A model generated the notes under the pieces. The model saw only the letters and a program-made list of their open reading frames with translations. It did not search any database and was not told the origin of the DNA. Source: Somniosus microcephalus (lineage: Eukaryota). Taken from it: a stretch of 64,000 nt of DNA. Shown piece by piece: positions 5,436 through 52,694 of this stretch. Both the position numbers and the translations under genes were made by a program. The stretch spans positions 257,238,001 to 257,302,000 of the forward strand of contig CM126204.1 of the NCBI GenBank assembly GCA_052327205.1, written 5' to 3'. The first letter of the stretch is position 1, and each line of letters begins with the position of its first letter.

Positions 5436-5685
5436 TAGAAGGATATGCTGATCGGGTTAGATGGTAGGGTGGGAGGAGGTACATTTGGTGCATAAACACC
5501 AGCATAGACCAGTTGAGCTGAATGACCTGTTTCTGTCCTGTAAACTCTATGTTACTTAGTAGGGCAATAAAAAAGGAATATAGTCATCTTTTTGTAAAGT
5601 TTAGCCTGGGTATTTATTTATAAAATATATACTGTATACTTTTTCCATTCAACAGTGTATCACAGATGGACTCAAAGCTGTTAGA

Positions 5686-6271
5686 ATGCCATCGGAATTG
5701 GAAGTGCACCAGATCGAGCCATTGAATGAGCAGCAAGTACTAAACTCTGAAGGTGGTTACGTGTGGCACGTGACCGACATGACCCGCCTGCGCCGGTTTC
5801 TCTGTTTTGGTTCTGAGGGTGGAACATACTACACCAATGAGGAAAAGCTTGGGAAAGAAAATGCTCAGGCCATATTGAGACTGATCGAAGAAGGTAAAGG
5901 GGCTGAGGTTGTCCAGGAGATAAAGACATTCGGTATTGAAGGAAGGGCAGTCACACAAGATCCTACTTTGTTCACCTTGGCTCTTTGTACACAATGCTCA
6001 GATGCTTCCACAAAACAAGCTGCATACAAAGCTCTGGCTGAAATCTGTCGCAATCCAACCCATCTATTCACATATATCCAGTTCAGAAAGGATCTGAGTG
6101 GAGGGATGAAATGTGGTATATGGGGAAGAGCCCTGAGGAAAGCAGTGGCAAACTGGTACAACAGTAAAGATGGGATGGCTATTGCAATGGCAGTTACAAA
6201 GTACAAGCGGAGAGCAGGATGGTCACACAAAGATTTGCTTCGGTTGTCACATCTGAAGCCAGCTAATGAAG
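5686..6271 (+). CDS. RO60: RO60 coding exon 1
   Basis: ATG at 5686; LNSEGGYVW...HLKPANE; donor G|gtcagt. Confidence 0.95.
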
Positions 6272-9200
6272 GTCAGTAATAATATTGTGTAGCACTGATT
6301 TTTCTCCCCCAACTTTCTCACCTCCTGTCTAGAAGCTGCCTAAAGTGACTGACCATCTGATAATTTAAATTTCCTTCCCTCTTGGGATCGTGCCCTGACC
6401 AGCAATATATTGACTTGGAAATCGCATTGGTCCTACCATTCATTGCTAGAGGAATTGAATGAACGTATGATTACCCAGCAAGTTAGAATCAATACATACA
6501 GCGGGAACAGTACCATAGTGGTAATATTACTGGGCTAGTAATGCAGGAACCTGGACTAATGATCCAGAGAAGTGAGTTCAAATCCCACCTCGGCAGCTGG
6601 GGAATTTAAACTCAGTTAATTAAATAAATCTGGAATGAAAAGCTAGTATCAGTAATGGTGACCATTAAACTATCGGATTGTGGTTAAAAACCCATCTGGT
6701 TCACTAACGTCCTTTAGGGAAGGAAATCTGCCATCCTTACCTGGTCTGGCCTGTATGTAACTCCAGACCCACAGCAATGTGGTTCACTCTTGACTGCCCT
6801 CTGAAATGGCCTAGCAAGTCACTGTGTTGTAACAAACCGCTATGAGAAGCAATAATAAGGATTAAAAAAGCGGACAGACCACCCGGCATCAACCTCTGCG
6901 CCAGCTACGGACACGGCAACGGCACACCCAGCCCAGTCGACCCTGCAAAGTCCTCCTCACCAACATCTAGGGACTTGTGCCAAAATTGGGAGAGCTGTCC
7001 CACAGACTAGTCAAGCAACAGCCTGACATAGTCATACTCACAAAATCATACCTTTCAGCCAATGTCCCAAACTCCTCCATCACCGTCCCTGGGTATGTCC
7101 TGTCCCACCGGCAGGACAAACCCACTAGGGGTGGCGGCACAGTGGTATACAGTCAGGTTGAGTGTCCTCAACATTGATTCCGGACCCCATGAAGTCTCAT
7201 GGCTTCGGGTCAAGCATGGGCAAGCAAACCTGCTAATTACCATCTACTGCCCTCCCTCAGCTGATGAATCAGTACTCCTCCATGTTGAACACCACTTGGA
7301 AGAAGCAATGAGAGTAGAATGTACTCTGGGTGGGGGACTTCAAGAGTGGCTCGGTAGCACCACGACTGACCGAGCTGGCCTGGAGGACATAGCTGCCAGT
7401 CTGGGCCTGCGACAGGTGGTGAGAGAACCAACGCGAGGGAAAAATCGACCTCGTCCTCACCAATCTACCTGTCACAGATGCATCTGTCCATGACAGTCCC
7501 GTCTTCACACTGCGGACACCCTCCATTGTGTTGTATGGCACCCCCACCGTGCTAAATGGGATTCAGAACAGATCTAGCAGCTCAAAACTGGGCATCCATG
7601 AGGCTCAGCAGAACTGTATTCCACCACAATCTGTAACCTCATGGCCTGGGGTTATCCGTCACTCTACCATTATCATCAAGCCAAGAGACCAACCCTGGCT
7701 CAATAAGGAGTGTAGAAGAGCATGCCAGGAGCAGCACCAGGCATACCTAAAAATGAAATAACTACAGAAAATGCTGGAAATACTCAGCAGGCCAGGCAGC
7801 ATCCGTGGAGAGAGAAACAGAGTTAACGTTTCAGGTCTGGGACCCTTCATCAGAACTGGAAAAAGCTGGAGATGTAACATATTAAGCAGGTGCAGAGACA
7901 GAGACAGCTATGCCTGCCTGTTCATGGGACATGTGGAACATTCTTTGTTCCAGTCCTACTCAGGTCCCCTCCCTCCCCTCTTTTTCCGGTACATCAATGA
8001 CTGTATTGGTGCCGTTTCCTGCTCTCGCCCTGAACTGGATAAGTTCATCACTGTCATTACCCAGAGCTAAGAAGTAAGGCACTTCTACATATCCAAAAAA
8101 GCAGTAAAATATGGAGAGATGGGCAGTCAATATTAAATTCACAAAACAATTTAATTGTAACAGTAAGAGCTTGTTTCTGCTATTGGAATAGACCTTTCTA
8201 ATAAATTCCTGACTATATACAGCAGTGGTGCCACTAATAAGTAACCATGCGAGAAACTTTAACCTTTTTTTTAATAAAACTTGTTGAATCTGGTACTTTG
8301 CCTTTAATATTCTTTTAGACCTTGCATCTCTAACTGACTAAAAGAGCAGGTGGGCAAGCAACTGTAGACTATGTCCAACCTCCGCTAACACTGTTGTGTG
8401 GCTCGTCAGTAGGCATTGCTAAAGTAAGACCCAAGGTCTGCACTGATGCATTTTCTTTCTGTCCTTTTCATTGTTGTGCTTGAACCAGTCAAGATCGCAC
8501 CAATTCATCCTCTAGGAGATGTCAAGGCTGCGTACTTTTAAACTTAGGTGTCATTTATACAGTACTAGCTGGGGGAGCCCGGCTTTGCCAGGGCTGTTTT
8601 GGGCCGGGCGGTTTAAATCGAGTGCGAGGCTTTGGGGCCTCTCTGTGTCCCTCTGTGAATCTGCTGCCAGGCAACATTTTAAATCGAGTCCCAGGCTTTT
8701 GGGCCCTGTCTGTGTCCCTTTGTGAATCTGCTGCCGGGCAACATTTCTACCTTTTAATACCTTGAAAGATGAAAGTGAAAGTACTTATAAAACGTTTTTG
8801 GTAAATCTTATGTTATTTTTAAAAGAGATACTAACTTTTTCAAAGCTGGATGATCAAAGTAGTTTGAGCTGGAAGCAGTGAAACAATGGCTGCCACATCC
8901 CTGAGATGAAAACGATTAGTCCCGCCCACACACACACACCGATTGGCCAACCATCAGGGGACCGTACTGTAGGATTGGTCAATCGTGACGGCACAGGATT
9001 GGTCGAACCTTGACGTCAGTCAATCAATGCTAAGTAGCAGATAATGAGTTTAATTTTGAAGGTTTTTTGCATAAGGCGCGAACAATTTTCATCCGACCGA
9101 AAAGTAAATACGCTTGCGACCGTCCCGGAACCGTAAGCTTTCTTTGGAGGTAACGCGCGTAGGTAGGCTCTATAACTTTCGAGCGCATAGCCGGACAGAC

Positions 9201-47680: not shown

Positions 47681-47889
47681 TACAGTGTGAAGCCCTGATC
47701 TTGGCTGCACTGCCTCCCATGGTGCACTAGCCCTTACAGTGTCAAGCCCTGATCTTGGCTGCACTGCCTCCCATGGTCGAATAGCCCTTACAGTGTCAAG
47801 CCCTGATCTTGGCTGCACTGCCTCCCATGGTGGAATAGCCCTTACAGTGTCAAGCCTGATCTTGGCTGCACTGCCTCCCATGGTGGAAT
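47681..47889. repeat. 54-bp minisatellite (~4 units here; one more at 51183-51230 beyond the LINE)
   Basis: CCCTGATCTTGGCTGCACTGCCTCCCATGG recurs at 47693, 47747, 47801, 47855 and 51182. Confidence 0.9.
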
Positions 47890-50800
47890 TTTATTTTTTA
47901 TTTTTTATTCATTGATGGGATGTGGGCGTCGCTGGCTGGCTAGGCCTGCATTTAGTGCCCATCCCTAATTGCCCTTGAGAAGATGGTGGTGAGCCGCCGC
48001 CTTGAACTGCTGCAGTCCATATGGTGTAGGTACACCCACAATGCTGTTAGGAAGGGAGTTCCAGGATTTTGGCCCAGCGACAGTGAAGGAACGGCGATAC
48101 AGGTCCAAGTCAGGATGGTATGTGGCTTGGAGGGGAACGTGTAGGTGGTGATGTTCCCATGCGTCTGCTGCCCTTGTCCTAAGTGGTAGAGGTCGCGGGT
48201 TTGGAAGGTGCTGTTGAAGGAGCTTTGGCGAGTTGCTGCAGTGCATCTTGTAGATGGTACACACTGCAGCCACAGTGCGCCAGTGGTGGAGGGAGTGAAT
48301 GTTGAAGGTGGTGGATGGAGTGCCAATCAAGCGGGCTGCTTTATCCTGAATGGTGTCGAGCTTCTTGAGTGTTGTTGGAGCTGCACTCATCCAGGCAAGT
48401 GGAGAGTATTCCATCACACTCCTGACTTGTGCCTTGTAGATGGTGGAAAGGCTTTGGGGAGTCAGGAGGTGAGACACTCGCCGCAGAATTCCCAGCCTCT
48501 GGCCTGCTCTTGTAGCCACAGTATTTATATGGCTGGTCCAGTTCAGTTTCTGATCAATGGTAACCCCCAGGATGTTGATAGTGGGGGATTCAGCGATGGT
48601 AATGCCATTGAATGTCAAGGGGAGATGGTTAGAGTCTCGCTTGTTGGAGATGGTCATTGCCTGGCACTTGTGTGGTGCGAATGTTACTTGCCACTTGTCA
48701 GCCCAAATCTGAATGTTGTCTAGGTCTTGTTGCATATGGACACGGACTGCGTCAGTATCTGACGAGTCTCGAATGGTGCTGAACAGTGTGCAATCATCAG
48801 CGAACATCCCCACTTCTGACCTTATGATGGAGGGAAGGTCATTGATGAAACAGCTGAAGATGGTTGGGCCTAGGACACTGCCCTGAGGAACTCCTGCAGT
48901 GATGTCATGTGATTGAGATGAATGACCTCCAACAACCACAGCCAACTTCCTTTGTGCCAGGTATGATTCCAACCAATGGAGAGTTTTCCCCTTGATTCCC
49001 ATTGACTTCAGTTTTGCTAGGGCTCCTTGATGCCACACTCGATCAAATGCTGCCTTGATGTCAAGGGCAGTCACTCTCACCTCACCTCTTGAGTTCGGCT
49101 CTTTTGTCCATGTTTGGACCAAGGCTGTAATGAGGTCAGGAGCTGAGTGGCCCTGGCGGAACCCAAACTGGGCATCAGTTAGCAGGTTATTGCTGAGTAA
49201 GTGCCGCTTAATAGCACTGTCAACGACACCTTCCATCACTTTGCTGATGATTGAGAGTAGACTGATGGGACGGTAATTGGCCGGGTCGGATTTGTCCTGC
49301 TTTTTGTAGACAGGACATACTTGGGCAATTTTCCACATTGCCGGGTAGATGCTAGTGTTGTAGCTGTACTGGAACAGCTTGGCTAGGGGCGCAGCTAGTT
49401 CTGGAGCACAAGCCTTCAGTACTATTGCCGGAATGTTGTCAGGGCCCATAGCCTTTGCAGTATCCAGTGTCTTCAGCCGTTTCTTGACATCACGTGGAGT
49501 GAATTGAATGGGCTGAAGACTGGCATCTGTGATGCTGGGGACCTCAGGAGGAGGCCGAGATGGATCATCCACTCGGCACTTCTGGCTGAAGATAGTTGCG
49601 AATGCTTCAGCCTTGTCTTTTGCACTCACGTGCTGGGCTCCACCATCATTGAGGATGGGGATATTTTTGGAGCTTCCTCCTCCTGTTAACTGTTTAATTG
49701 TCCACCACCACTCACGACTGGATGTGGCAGGACTGCAGAGCTTTGATTTGATCCGATGGTTGTGAGATCGCTTAGCTCTGTTTATCGCATGTTGCTTCCG
49801 TTGTTTGGCATACAAGTAGTCCTGTGTTGTAGCCTCACCAGGTTGACACCTCATTTTTCGGTATGCCTGGTGCTGTTCCCGGCATGCTCTCCTGCACTCT
49901 TAGTTAAACCAGGGTTGATCTCCCGGCTTGATGGTAATGGTAGAGTGAGGGATATGCCGGGCCATGAGGTTACAGATTGTGGTTGAATACAATTCTGCTG
50001 CTGCTGATGGCCCACAGCACCTCATGGATGCCCAGTTTTGAGTTTCCAGATCTGTTCGAAATCTGTCCCATTTAGCACGGTGGTAGTGTCACACAACACG
50101 GTGGAGGGTATCCTCAACATGAAGATGGGACTTCGTCTCCACAAGGACTGTGCGGTGGTCACTTCCACCAATGCTGTCATGGACAGATGCATCTGCAACA
50201 GGTAGATTGGTGAGGACGAGATCAAGTAGGTTTTTCCCTTTTGTTGGTTCCCTCACCACCTGTCGCAGCCCCAGTCTGGCAGCTATGTCCTTTAGGACTC
50301 GGCCAGCTCGGTCAGTTGTGGTGCTACCGAGCCACTCTTGGTGATGGACATTGAAGTCCCCCACCCAGAGGATATTTTGTGCCCTTGCTACTCTCAGTGC
50401 TTCTTCCAATTGGTGTTCAACATGAAGGAGTAGTGATTCATCAGCTGAGGGAGGGCGGTAGGTGGTAATTAGCAGGAGGTTTTCTTGCCCATGTTTGACT
50501 TGATGCCATGAGACCTCATGGGGTCCTGAGTCAATGTTGAGGACTCCCAGGGCTACTCCCTCCCGACTGTATACCACGGTGCCACCACCTCTGGTGGGTC
50601 TGTCCTGCCGGTGGGACAGTACATAACCAGGGATGGTGATGGTGGTGTCTGGGACATTGGTTGTAAGGTATGATTCGGTAATTATGACTATGTCAGGCTG
50701 TTGCTTGACTAGTCTGTGGGACAGCTCTCCCAATTTTGGCACAAGCCCCCAGATGTTGGTAAGGAGGACTTTGCAGGGTCGACAGGGCTGGGTTTGCCGT

Positions 50801-51182
50801 TGTCATTGTCGTTTCCGGTGCCGGGTGATCCATCCGGTTTTATTCTTATTGTTTTTCGTAGCGGTTGTTTACAACTGAGTGGCTTGCTAGGCCATTTCAG
50901 AGAGCATTAAGAGTCAACCACATTGCTGTGGGTCTGGAGTCACATGTAGGCCAGACGATTTCCTTCCCTAAAGGACATTAGTGAACCAGATGGGTTTTTG
51001 CAACAATCGACAATGGTATCATGGTCGCCATTACTAAGACTAACATTTAATTCCAGAATTAAATTGAATTGAATTTAAATTCCACCAGCTGCCGTGGTGG
51101 GATTTGAACCCATATCCTCAGAGCATTTGACTGAGCCTCTGGCTTACTAGTCCAGTGACATAACCACTACGCCACCGCCTCC
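47890..51182 (-). mobile_element. Full-length tRNA-headed single-ORF LINE (APE + RT, CR1-group; Zenon-like motifs)
   Basis: tRNA head (A box TGGCGTAGTGG 51174-51164, B box GGTTCAAATCC 51110-51100), ~380-nt leader, APE (GDFN, SDH) and RT ([12 protein letters not shown]) in one frame with two nonsense codons (50089, ~49900), A-rich tail. Confidence 0.92.
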
Positions 51183-52694
51183 CCTGATCTTGGCTGCACT
51201 GCCTCCCATGGTCGAATAGCCCTTACAGTGTGTAAAGTGGTGATTGTGCATGTGATTTTCATGAGAGGCCCATAGGTCTTGGATGAGGGCTGGGCATTGG
51301 GGCTTTCAGGACCCTTTGGCCATAAAGTGAGGTGCACATGCAGGGATGAAGAGGATACTGGAAAGGGTACTCACCCTGATAACCCGAGTGAGGTCATTGA
51401 ACTTCTTCCTGCATTGCGTTGGGGTCCTAGGTACCATGCTGCTGGAGGTCACTCTGTGTGCCACCTCCCTCCAAGCTTTTCGATATTCGTTGGGTAGCGA
51501 CCTCCTGCCACTGTCCAGAAAGAGGATAGGTCGCCTGTGCTCCACTGCGCCAACCAGGACCTTCAGGGCCCCCTCACTGAAGCGCTGCGCTCGCTCCCTG
51601 CCCCTCTCCATGGTCGTAGGCGTAACGATGTCGCAGCAGGTCTTTCCAGGCCTAGAATCAGGGCTCCAATGTGCAGGGCGTGGCTGCAAGCCAAATCGAC
51701 CCTCCCCCTTTAAGAGGTGACCGGCGCCAGCATGTCTGCCTGCAATCGCTAACTGGCCGCACCTGCGCTGCGCCCGCCCTCGGTGGTAGCGCCTTGCCTC
51801 TCCAGCTTAGCGCCTTAGGATAGTCGTGCAGCGCCTGCTTTAGTGCAGCAAGAACCTCTTGGGGCAATGCAACTCAATTTTGCTGAAGGTGGCGCTAAGT
51901 TGCGCCAGGCGCTAAATTTAGCGTACGCTCGACTGTAGCGCCCCAAACATGGCGATACTGAATTTCTAGGCCCACATTTTTAAAATGAGTTGAAATTACA
52001 ATAAATTAAATATTTTAAATATTTTTTGAATAAAATAATTAAAGTTTTTTTACGGGGCTAAAAATAAACTTACCTTTTTTTAAAAGTATTTTTAAATGCT
52101 AAATGAGTGAAAACATTTTTTAAAAACTTTTTTCAGCTCATATGCTGGTAAAAGCAGGCCTTTCGGAAAGCGGAACTCTCCACCCGCAGAGGCCCTTCTC
52201 TAGGGCAGGCTTCCGATCTGTCAAGAGCATTCTTGACAAATCGGAAATGCCGGTTTTCAGCGCATGTGCTTGGCATGCCTGAAACTGACATTTCCGATGT
52301 CCCTACGGGTGTGTACACAGCGCGAACACACCCGTAGGCATCGGAATATATGGCCCATTGTGTTATCTGCATCTGTACATTAAGCCCCTGTTCTGTGATA
52401 GGCTTTGGCACCCTGAAGAAAATTCCCAATACTTAAAACAAAACTCACAACATTCTTCAGCCAGGAAGAAAGAGAAAGGCTGCCTGCTCTATAATCACTG
52501 CCAATGCTGTTCCTCAGGAAGGTCATCTTTTCCAAGACTTCAAGAGGCCTTAAAGTAATTATCAAATGTATTGGATATCGAGCAAAAAGAGAGACTCCCA
52601 AAATTAAGGAATGTATTAGGAAGGAATTGAAGAAGCCAGCAGCAAATTCTAAATACTTCCTCCATTATAACACAAGTTTTGGCTACTTCCCATG

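Follow-up and report, generated by a model that had tools for sequence, protein, structure and literature searches.

A Zenon retrotransposon of the Greenland shark without a usable AUG ahead of its endonuclease: a conserved leader core as a candidate for internal, AUG-independent initiation

Introduction

How retrotransposons without long terminal repeats (non-LTR elements) start translating the frame that encodes their endonuclease (APE) together with the reverse transcriptase (RT) is an open question, and a long interspersed nuclear element (LINE) in the genome of the Greenland shark, Somniosus microcephalus, raises it anew. The window analyzed here, a stretch of 64,000 nucleotides (nt) from contig CM126204.1 (GenBank assembly GCA_052327205.1, positions 257,238,001 to 257,302,000), carries two copies of this element, a member of the elasmobranch Zenon family (Table 1). 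According to the original prediction, made from the letters of the window, its endonuclease frame lacks an AUG, and translation would rely on a structured leader resembling a site of internal ribosome entry (IRES) in an uncapped transcript of RNA polymerase III (Pol III). Comparable ideas exist for other non-LTR elements: the hepatitis delta virus (HDV)-like ribozyme leaders of R2, L1Tc and RTE elements are thought to act as IRESs (PMC6765202), and a commentary from 2013 pointed out that IRESs of the intergenic region (IGR) type in non-LTR elements would force a redefinition of their second open reading frame (ORF), ORF2 (PMC3894237). The comparison of many Zenon copies leads us to a short, defined and strongly constrained vertebrate sequence directly ahead of an AUG-less frame, and internal, AUG-independent initiation guided by this core is the explanation to which we give somewhat better than an even chance.

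Results

The element and its copies

On the near identity of its 5' 400 nt with published Zenon consensuses, judged by eye, the element is an elasmobranch Zenon LINE of the CR1 group. Five published species, each represented by the first 400 characters of its consensus in the supplement of Stuart et al. (2026, PMC13343379) and compared by eye, served to assess per-site conservation in further organisms. Subfamily B, as a majority sequence, agrees with the first 400 nt of SquAca_Zenon-1, and the consensuses of white shark, whale shark, catshark and stingray have the same leader. Majority sequences were built from the 30 best copies aligned to each of the two window copies, one of which represents subfamily A, the youngest subfamily, and the other subfamily B. 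With its tRNA-like head, a single APE-RT frame and a poly(A) tail, the element has the architecture of a non-LTR retrotransposon; there is no ORF1, and the APE-RT frame of 972 codons starts directly behind a leader of 331 nt. Twenty full-length copies were fetched from the genome, 17 of which reach the A-rich 3' end and three of which stop short of it. A 24-nt pattern from the leader has 10,029 exact matches in the genome, and a pattern spanning the junction of leader and ORF has 2,890.

Table 1. Features of the two Zenon copies in the window (positions are those of the window).
Feature	Position	Strand	Remarks
Full-length Zenon LINE copy, subfamily A	47889..51184	-	3.3 kb, poly(A) tail; killed by private stops; 97% identity to family majority
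tRNA-derived head; A box from 51174, B box from 51110; putative Pol III promoter	51095..51184	-	weak tRNA-clan match, E 0.2
Spacer behind the head, of moderate variability, with three upstream AUGs	51000..51094	-	subfamilies differ by 13 substitutions over 91 nt
Leader core, 146 nt in family, 15 nt absent from window copy	50869..50999	-	one long, irregular stem and two hairpins, H2 (small) and H3
Hairpin H3, whose 7-nt loop C-U-AGC-A-A (50890-50884) is predicted to mimic an anticodon loop	50875..50900	-	contains in-frame AUG 50895 and UAG 50889
TAA, in frame in subfamilies A and B; older class has TAC/TAT	50869..50871	-	TAA in 100/110 unselected copies
GCU(A), invariant and in frame, 12 nt past the stem of H3; would form a pseudoknot with the loop; predicted start region	50859..50862	-	kept in five published species
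N-terminal extension: A-rich spacer, then Arg-X repeats	50779..50858	-	window copy: 12-nt deletion and private TGA at 50805
APE endonuclease domain, Met-free	50089..50778	-	frame end at 50089 is a private TGG-to-TGA change
First in-frame ATG, codon 286 of family frame	50023..50025	-	downstream of APE
Reverse transcriptase and C-terminal part, same single ORF	47965..49899	-	Pfam PF00078, E 1.6e-39
Second copy, subfamily B, older, 3'-truncated	6503..7756	+	leader core at 6686-6846

A reading frame without a usable AUG

The minus-strand frame at 50089-50802 encodes an APE domain (Pfam PF14529 and PF03372) and, as the original prediction stated, contains no Met; its first in-frame ATG begins at 50025. 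That prediction also named the check on which it depended, namely whether a consensus restores an in-frame AUG upstream of APE. None is restored: both majorities lack an in-frame ATG before or within APE. In both of them the frame opens after the TAA, passes through the A-rich spacer and the Arg-X repeat into the start of APE, and reaches its first Met at codon 286. The same holds for one of the 20 full-length natural copies, L075, in which all 972 codons are unbroken and the first Met again stands at 286. Some details of the predicted frame have to be corrected. Its opening was placed at about 50800; the real one follows the TAA at 50871-50869, and the stop at 50805 is private to the window copy, as are the stop at 50089 and two deletions. 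The GTG taken as the ORF start (50742) was rejected as an artefact of the ORF caller, since it falls within APE, behind the Asn in the motif TNIWGL. Upstream ATGs had been described as out of frame, which is correct for the one at 50833, absent also from the copy at 6503, and incorrect for those at 51126, 50907 and 50895, which are in frame and closed by stops. The ATGs at 50833 and 50806 are private to the window copy and were made by CpG decay. No Met occurs in the first 285 codons of the family frame versus 13 in the other 687 (P 0.004, post hoc). Related proteins have between none and four Met within APE, and the initial Met of relatives found in protein searches may stand for alternative starts.

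Between subfamilies A and B, the 251 Met-free APE codons show 31 synonymous and 13 non-synonymous codon changes, with differences at 2 of 251 second positions and at 15 of 133 fourfold degenerate sites. By this comparison the Met-free codons are under purifying selection, and the excess of synonymous over non-synonymous changes, together with the two second-position changes, indicates that APE was produced and under selection at a time when the stops were present in both lineages. The same selection led us to reject a scenario in which APE is dispensable or supplied in trans. In subfamily A, at least two recoding events would be needed for any AUG to reach APE, and still purifying selection acts on APE; the predicted non-AUG start is in this respect supported by sequence comparison.

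An in-frame ATG is present in the N-terminal extension of 29 of 161 copies, in about 20 of them at an ACG codon. Since the frequency of C-to-T change at this codon (30/164) matches that at three other CpG sites (29, 31 and 32 of 164), we read the ATG-bearing copies as products of decay and reject a master copy with an AUG at this position. The ACG at 50859 was also considered as a near-cognate or edited start and rejected, the codon not being conserved. Splicing from a donor in the head was rejected as well; the phases of the acceptors, inspected by eye, miss the APE frame.

A strongly constrained leader core

A leader of about 300 nt had been described as conserved. Strong conservation extends over about 146 nt (50999-50869); between the subfamilies, the head differs at 20 of its 88 sites and the post-head segment at 13 of 91. 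Within the 146 nt of the core, the subfamilies differ by one substitution and one indel, as against 34 of 239 fourfold sites of the ORF (1/146 versus 34/239, Fisher p 6.5e-7), and the core is near-invariant in the five published shark and ray consensuses though their heads differ. Judged from these counts, the core is under purifying selection and its constraint is strong.

The predicted folds of the core agree on the three structures listed in Table 1. At the outer pair 195:267, 152 of 213 loci have U-A, 17 have A-U (old derivatives belonging to the short interspersed nuclear elements, SINEs) and four have G-U; in the whale-shark consensus, the inner pair 220:238 has gone from A-U to G-C. Several further changes affect one side of a pair and leave the pairing in the core intact or better. 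Pair counts on 27 decayed copies find real compensation at one pair only and provide no valid covariation test beyond that pair. Inside the core lies an upstream ORF (uORF) of 17 codons (MSFREG..., window 50978 onward, family positions 207-260), in whose frame five common variants are synonymous and four or five others, from the Greenland shark genome and the published species, are non-synonymous; conservation of the core for the sake of this uORF is not favoured by such variants. Searches with BLAST, nhmmer and a covariance model found no homologue of the core in viral contigs or in 80 metagenome LINE loci, most of which belong to other LINE clades. A purine-rich word around GAAGGAAA (window 50950-50970) shows a possible resemblance to the conserved domain in the 5' untranslated region of RTE elements and Ceph-SINEs, as given in the supplement of PMC5786205, with about 16 matching letters when gaps are allowed.

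The core also travels without the ORF. Thirty leader loci taken in genome order comprise 12 SINEs, composed of head, core and the 3' tail of the LINE, and nine loci that run on into the ORF. In several SINE families, head and core continue into the final 70-140 nt of the LINE, with breakpoints that differ, which suggests repeated internal deletions; examples are L084, L092, L093, L094, L101 and L108, among others, with the leader at about 1460-1620. An older SINE family carries diagnostic variants of the core.

The predicted start region

The distances around the GCU were measured in the 164 of 249 loci that have both leader and APE start, a sample that was in part chosen by patterns over H3. 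The H3 stem is separated from the GCU by 12 nt in 153 of 160 copies. In 126 of 160, the stretch between the GCU and APE has a length divisible by three, the modes being 84, 90, 93, 96 and 99. Four of the five published Zenon-1 consensuses are likewise in frame behind the GCU. The codons between H3 and the GCU tolerate a stop (subfamilies A and B), free change of amino acids and the loss of 1 nt, as in the whale-shark consensus, where the shortening before the GCU puts the H3 AUG out of frame and leaves the GCU in frame. The codon behind the GCU varies by lineage (ACG, ACA, ACC, AGG or AAA), and only its first A is fixed. With stops and a frameshift tolerated before the GCU, lengths in threes behind it and a variable next codon, we predict that translation starts at or just after the invariant GCU, at a point that would not be set by a near-cognate codon.

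Read against the consensus of tRNA anticodon loops, the loop of H3 looks like that of a tRNA-Ala, and its AGC can pair with the in-frame GCU(A) over 3-4 base pairs (bp). An in-frame complement of the loop turns up in 2% of shuffles, a post hoc figure that has to be multiplied several times. It is possible, though we consider it doubtful, that the modelled pairing makes the loop a mimic of the tRNA-Ala anticodon on its codon, in the manner of pseudoknot I of the dicistrovirus IGR IRESs.

H3 also holds an in-frame AUG in good context (GAA-AUG-G), which in subfamilies A and B is followed by UAG at codon 3 and UAA at codon 9; in the window copy it is closed by the UAG two codons on and then by a second stop. 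The older class of copies, with TAC/TAT at codon 9, sits on longer branches in a tree of 96 copies, and 142 of its members keep the UAG while 56 are without it. Among 110 unselected copies, 31 have C, G or A as the first base of this UAG, a variability far above background. Such variability (window 50889 and 50882, in the loop and the stem of H3) may reflect many masters or the misreading of a modified U by reverse transcription. In subfamily A, ten AUGs lie ahead of the H3 AUG, which makes scanning implausible, and of the frames opened by its 11 leader AUGs not one overlaps APE; in subfamily B, two AUG openings in the +1 frame, of 76 and 48 codons, overlap the start of APE.

The tRNA-derived head and features that fit Pol III transcription

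In 26 of 30 copies the 5' end lies no more than 3 nt into the head, and at this common 5' end stand the A and B boxes of a putative type 2 Pol III promoter; ARAGORN called no tRNA gene at the head. The sense strand of the majority sequence is free of runs of four T (T4) over 3306 nt, runs of A, G and C being common. For the ORF, 2.8 and 4.1 T4 runs are expected under two null models (P 0.033 and 0.0075), and runs of three T number 7 versus 15.4 expected (P 0.0008). By comparison, a CR1 copy in the window has nine T4 runs in 1455 nt. T4 runs are missing from 14 of the 20 full-length copies, and the other six have one each. Type 2 Pol III transcripts are uncapped. The missing T4 runs, the two boxes and the common 5' end fit transcription by Pol III, hence an uncapped RNA, and on these sequence features the RNA of the element is likely an uncapped Pol III transcript. 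The original prediction of such an RNA is indirectly supported by these features.

Discussion

The data reported here lend themselves to a model in which Pol III would transcribe the Zenon LINE from its tRNA-type head into an uncapped RNA, on which the 146-nt core would place the ribosome internally. Translation would then need no initiator codon and would begin at the GCU that lies 12 nt behind H3, or just beyond it, and the H3 loop might pair with the in-frame GCU(A) as a mimic of the tRNA-Ala anticodon. Pol III transcription, the absence of a cap and ribosome binding by the core are the parts of this model that we infer. A further-reaching version is tentative, and we would sooner doubt it than rely on it: a vertebrate retrotransposon would make its endonuclease-RT from a 3.3-kb Pol III transcript by means of a factor-poor, tRNA-mimicking IRES, with a start that dispenses with the initiator Met-tRNA, and its SINEs would keep the ribosome-binding part in order to steal new protein.

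Several observations weigh against internal initiation guided by the core. The predicted IRES-like structured leader retains in its favour the strong constraint of the core and two compensatory changes; the folding energy of the core is ordinary in comparison with shuffles (z about 0, windows from -1.3 to +1.0), Rfam yields no IRES or ribozyme match for the leader, none even at E 10, and the core is kept in non-coding SINEs (12 of the 30 loci), several of which have lost the GCU, so that it may serve the assembly of ribonucleoprotein particles. The motif set of the dicistroviruses that we looked for includes CAGCC. Seven of its eight motifs (SLIV AUUU, SLV and L1.1; PMC12221177, PMC10275262) are absent from the leader, and one degenerate 4-mer is present. 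Among the 213 loci, the outer pair 195:267 is also found mismatched, as A-A in 10 and as U-U in four. As to the loop, the U that would correspond to U33 of a tRNA is kept in 79 of 110 unselected copies, and the predicted pseudoknot with the GCU comprises only 3-4 bp, is invariant and shows no compensatory change, with 75% of cells paired in the 27 decayed copies. Behind the GCU, the dogfish Zenon-1 consensus as published is shifted from the frame by 1 nt, unlike the majority of subfamily B, and Zenon-2 has a stop there. In the A-rich spacer, length differences relative to the reference are divisible by three in 91 copies and not so in 14; its three-nt changes may be due in part to triplet slippage. 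In L141 (37% identical), the nearest outside relative with DNA and the closest of the metagenome loci, an ordinary AUG stands in frame and the leader is a different one. Finally, all five published species, four of them with TAC/TAT at codon 9, keep AUG-GCC-UAG, and the presence of this sequence suits reinitiation.

In such a scheme, translation would start at the H3 AUG, produce Met-Ala, stop at the UAG and resume without an AUG a few codons on, as proposed for human L1 ORF2, which is translated AUG-independently, perhaps by reinitiation (PMC11485995). The strong context of the H3 AUG, its A kept in 89 of 89 unselected LINE copies, the published AUG-GCC-UAG and the GUG found at the same site in 14 of 17 old non-coding SINEs can all be reconciled with it. 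We nonetheless think it unlikely: the UAG is not fixed, no conserved near-cognate codon follows downstream, internal entry past ten upstream AUGs would still be needed, and the A-to-G change at the AUG site also improves pairing in H3, so that RNA structure explains the site. Read-through of the same UAG, which is followed by CAA in a leaky context, into the ORF would profit from the frame of the H3 AUG and from the single intervening stop of the older TAC/TAT class and of three published species, with 56 such copies stop-free versus 142 with the stop. However, subfamilies A and B, which were still under selection, would need a second read-through at the UAA, present in 100 of 110 copies, and the AUG is out of frame in the whale-shark consensus, which weakens a proposal that we already regard as very improbable.

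It is a little less probable still that translation starts at a +1-frame AUG, located in H2 or immediately ahead of the Arg-rich stretch, and enters APE through a -1 frameshift. Both +1 frames of subfamily B overlap the APE start, and the second of these AUGs occurs in all five published consensuses; yet subfamily A, the youngest and the one in the window, has neither, owing to a 1-nt loss and an AUA, inspection by eye revealed no conserved slippery site of the form X-XXY-YYZ, and the related protein P0009 has an Arg-rich N-terminus like that of the 0 frame. The core might, on the other hand, be a protein-binding or packaging (or Pol III) RNA element and not a site of ribosome entry, with low levels of protein coming from leaky near-cognate starts on capped read-through transcripts, an arrangement that we hold to be quite improbable. 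SINE derivatives without any ORF keep head and core and break off behind them at positions 322-348, the Zenon element of Lepidoptera also gives rise to internally deleted derivatives (PMC6740152), and the unremarkable folding energy points the same way. What this proposal leaves unexplained is the fixed 12-nt spacing in coding copies, the absence of a conserved near-cognate codon and the avoidance of T runs across the whole ORF. Moreover, a ribosome-binding element would presumably also help a SINE to capture new protein, in analogy to Alu. Internal, AUG-independent initiation guided by the core remains, in our weighing of the sequence comparisons, the best explanation ahead of these four.

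Relation to known systems

The Zenon family itself is known. The elasmobranch Zenon LINEs of Stuart et al. (2026, PMC13343379) are likewise devoid of ORF1, carry APE-RT and poly(A) and measure about 3.3 kb, and the same core is found in SquAca_Zenon-1 and in the four other species; the 5' ends of hagfish and coelacanth Zenon have no such head or core in the first 400 characters of their consensuses. In the main text of that article, the words 'tRNA', 'start codon', 'methionine' and 'polymerase III' have zero occurrences, and the head, the missing AUG and the core are not discussed. A literature search, with Repbase, Dfam and subscription journals outside its range, found nothing on these three features of shark Zenon, and we have thus not found them in print.

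By analogy, the Zenon leader would work like a dicistrovirus IGR IRES or like the ribozyme IRESs of R2, L1Tc and RTE elements, but features that define either group are missing from it. With the type 6 IRESs of the dicistroviruses (PMC12221177, PMC10275262) it shares a length of about 155 nt up to the GCU, a start that would be set by distance from a hairpin and not by the codon, and a predicted pairing of loop and codon in the frame of the ORF. It differs from them in lacking the SLIV, SLV and L1.1 motifs, evidence for PKII or PKIII and an Rfam match, in a predicted pairing of 3-4 bp only, and in belonging to a cellular retrotransposon and not to a virus. The HDV-like leaders (PMC6765202) resemble it as structured 5' leaders of non-LTR elements for which translation of uncapped RNA has been proposed. 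However, the 5' ends of Zenon copies lie at the tRNA head, some 185 nt upstream of the core, and not at a cleavage site, and the missing cap is ascribed to Pol III. An HDV fold, a nested double pseudoknot with self-cleavage at the 5' end, has no Rfam match in the leader, and the helix list, inspected by eye, contains no P1/P2 pair around the L3-like UCCUUACC. Human L1 ORF2 and the UAAUG reinitiation of SART1 (PMC11485995, PMC3894237) are further cases of an APE-RT frame made without a conventionally scanned AUG; theirs are second ORFs on capped bicistronic RNA, whereas Zenon has no ORF1 and offers only a uORF of two codons. Short elements built from the 5' and 3' ends of a LINE are known as bipartite non-autonomous derivatives (Kojima, 2018, PMC5786205; Persaeus/Zenon, PMC6740152), and the shark SINEs are alike in this; Persaeus has no tRNA homology, whereas the parent Zenon of the shark itself carries the tRNA head.

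If the favoured explanation is true, Zenon would provide a natural protein-coding Pol III transcript and, from the genome of a vertebrate, a compact element that works independently of a cap; it would also explain why the bodies of SINEs can be so conserved. The tRNA-mimicking version would add a device like an IGR IRES outside viruses.

Other observations

In more distant LINE relatives (the protein P0006 and the loci L150, L153, L173, L213 and L220), APE is preceded by a 2A-like NPGP motif, which the shark element lacks. Three annotated shark proteins, P0002, P0005 and P0008 (a zinc finger, an aldo-keto reductase and a storkhead-box protein), include pieces of the LINE and are probably gene-model artefacts. 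About 50 nt that flank the 5' end of the full-length copy (51182-51231) recur three to four times in tandem, with a period of 54 nt, behind its poly(A) tail (47681-47889); these repeats appear to be an amplified target-site duplication within a Harbinger-like (Myb/SANT) element. Just upstream of the copy at 6503, at 5605-6279 of the window, lies an exon-like frame whose peptide we take to resemble the start of Ro60/TROVE2.

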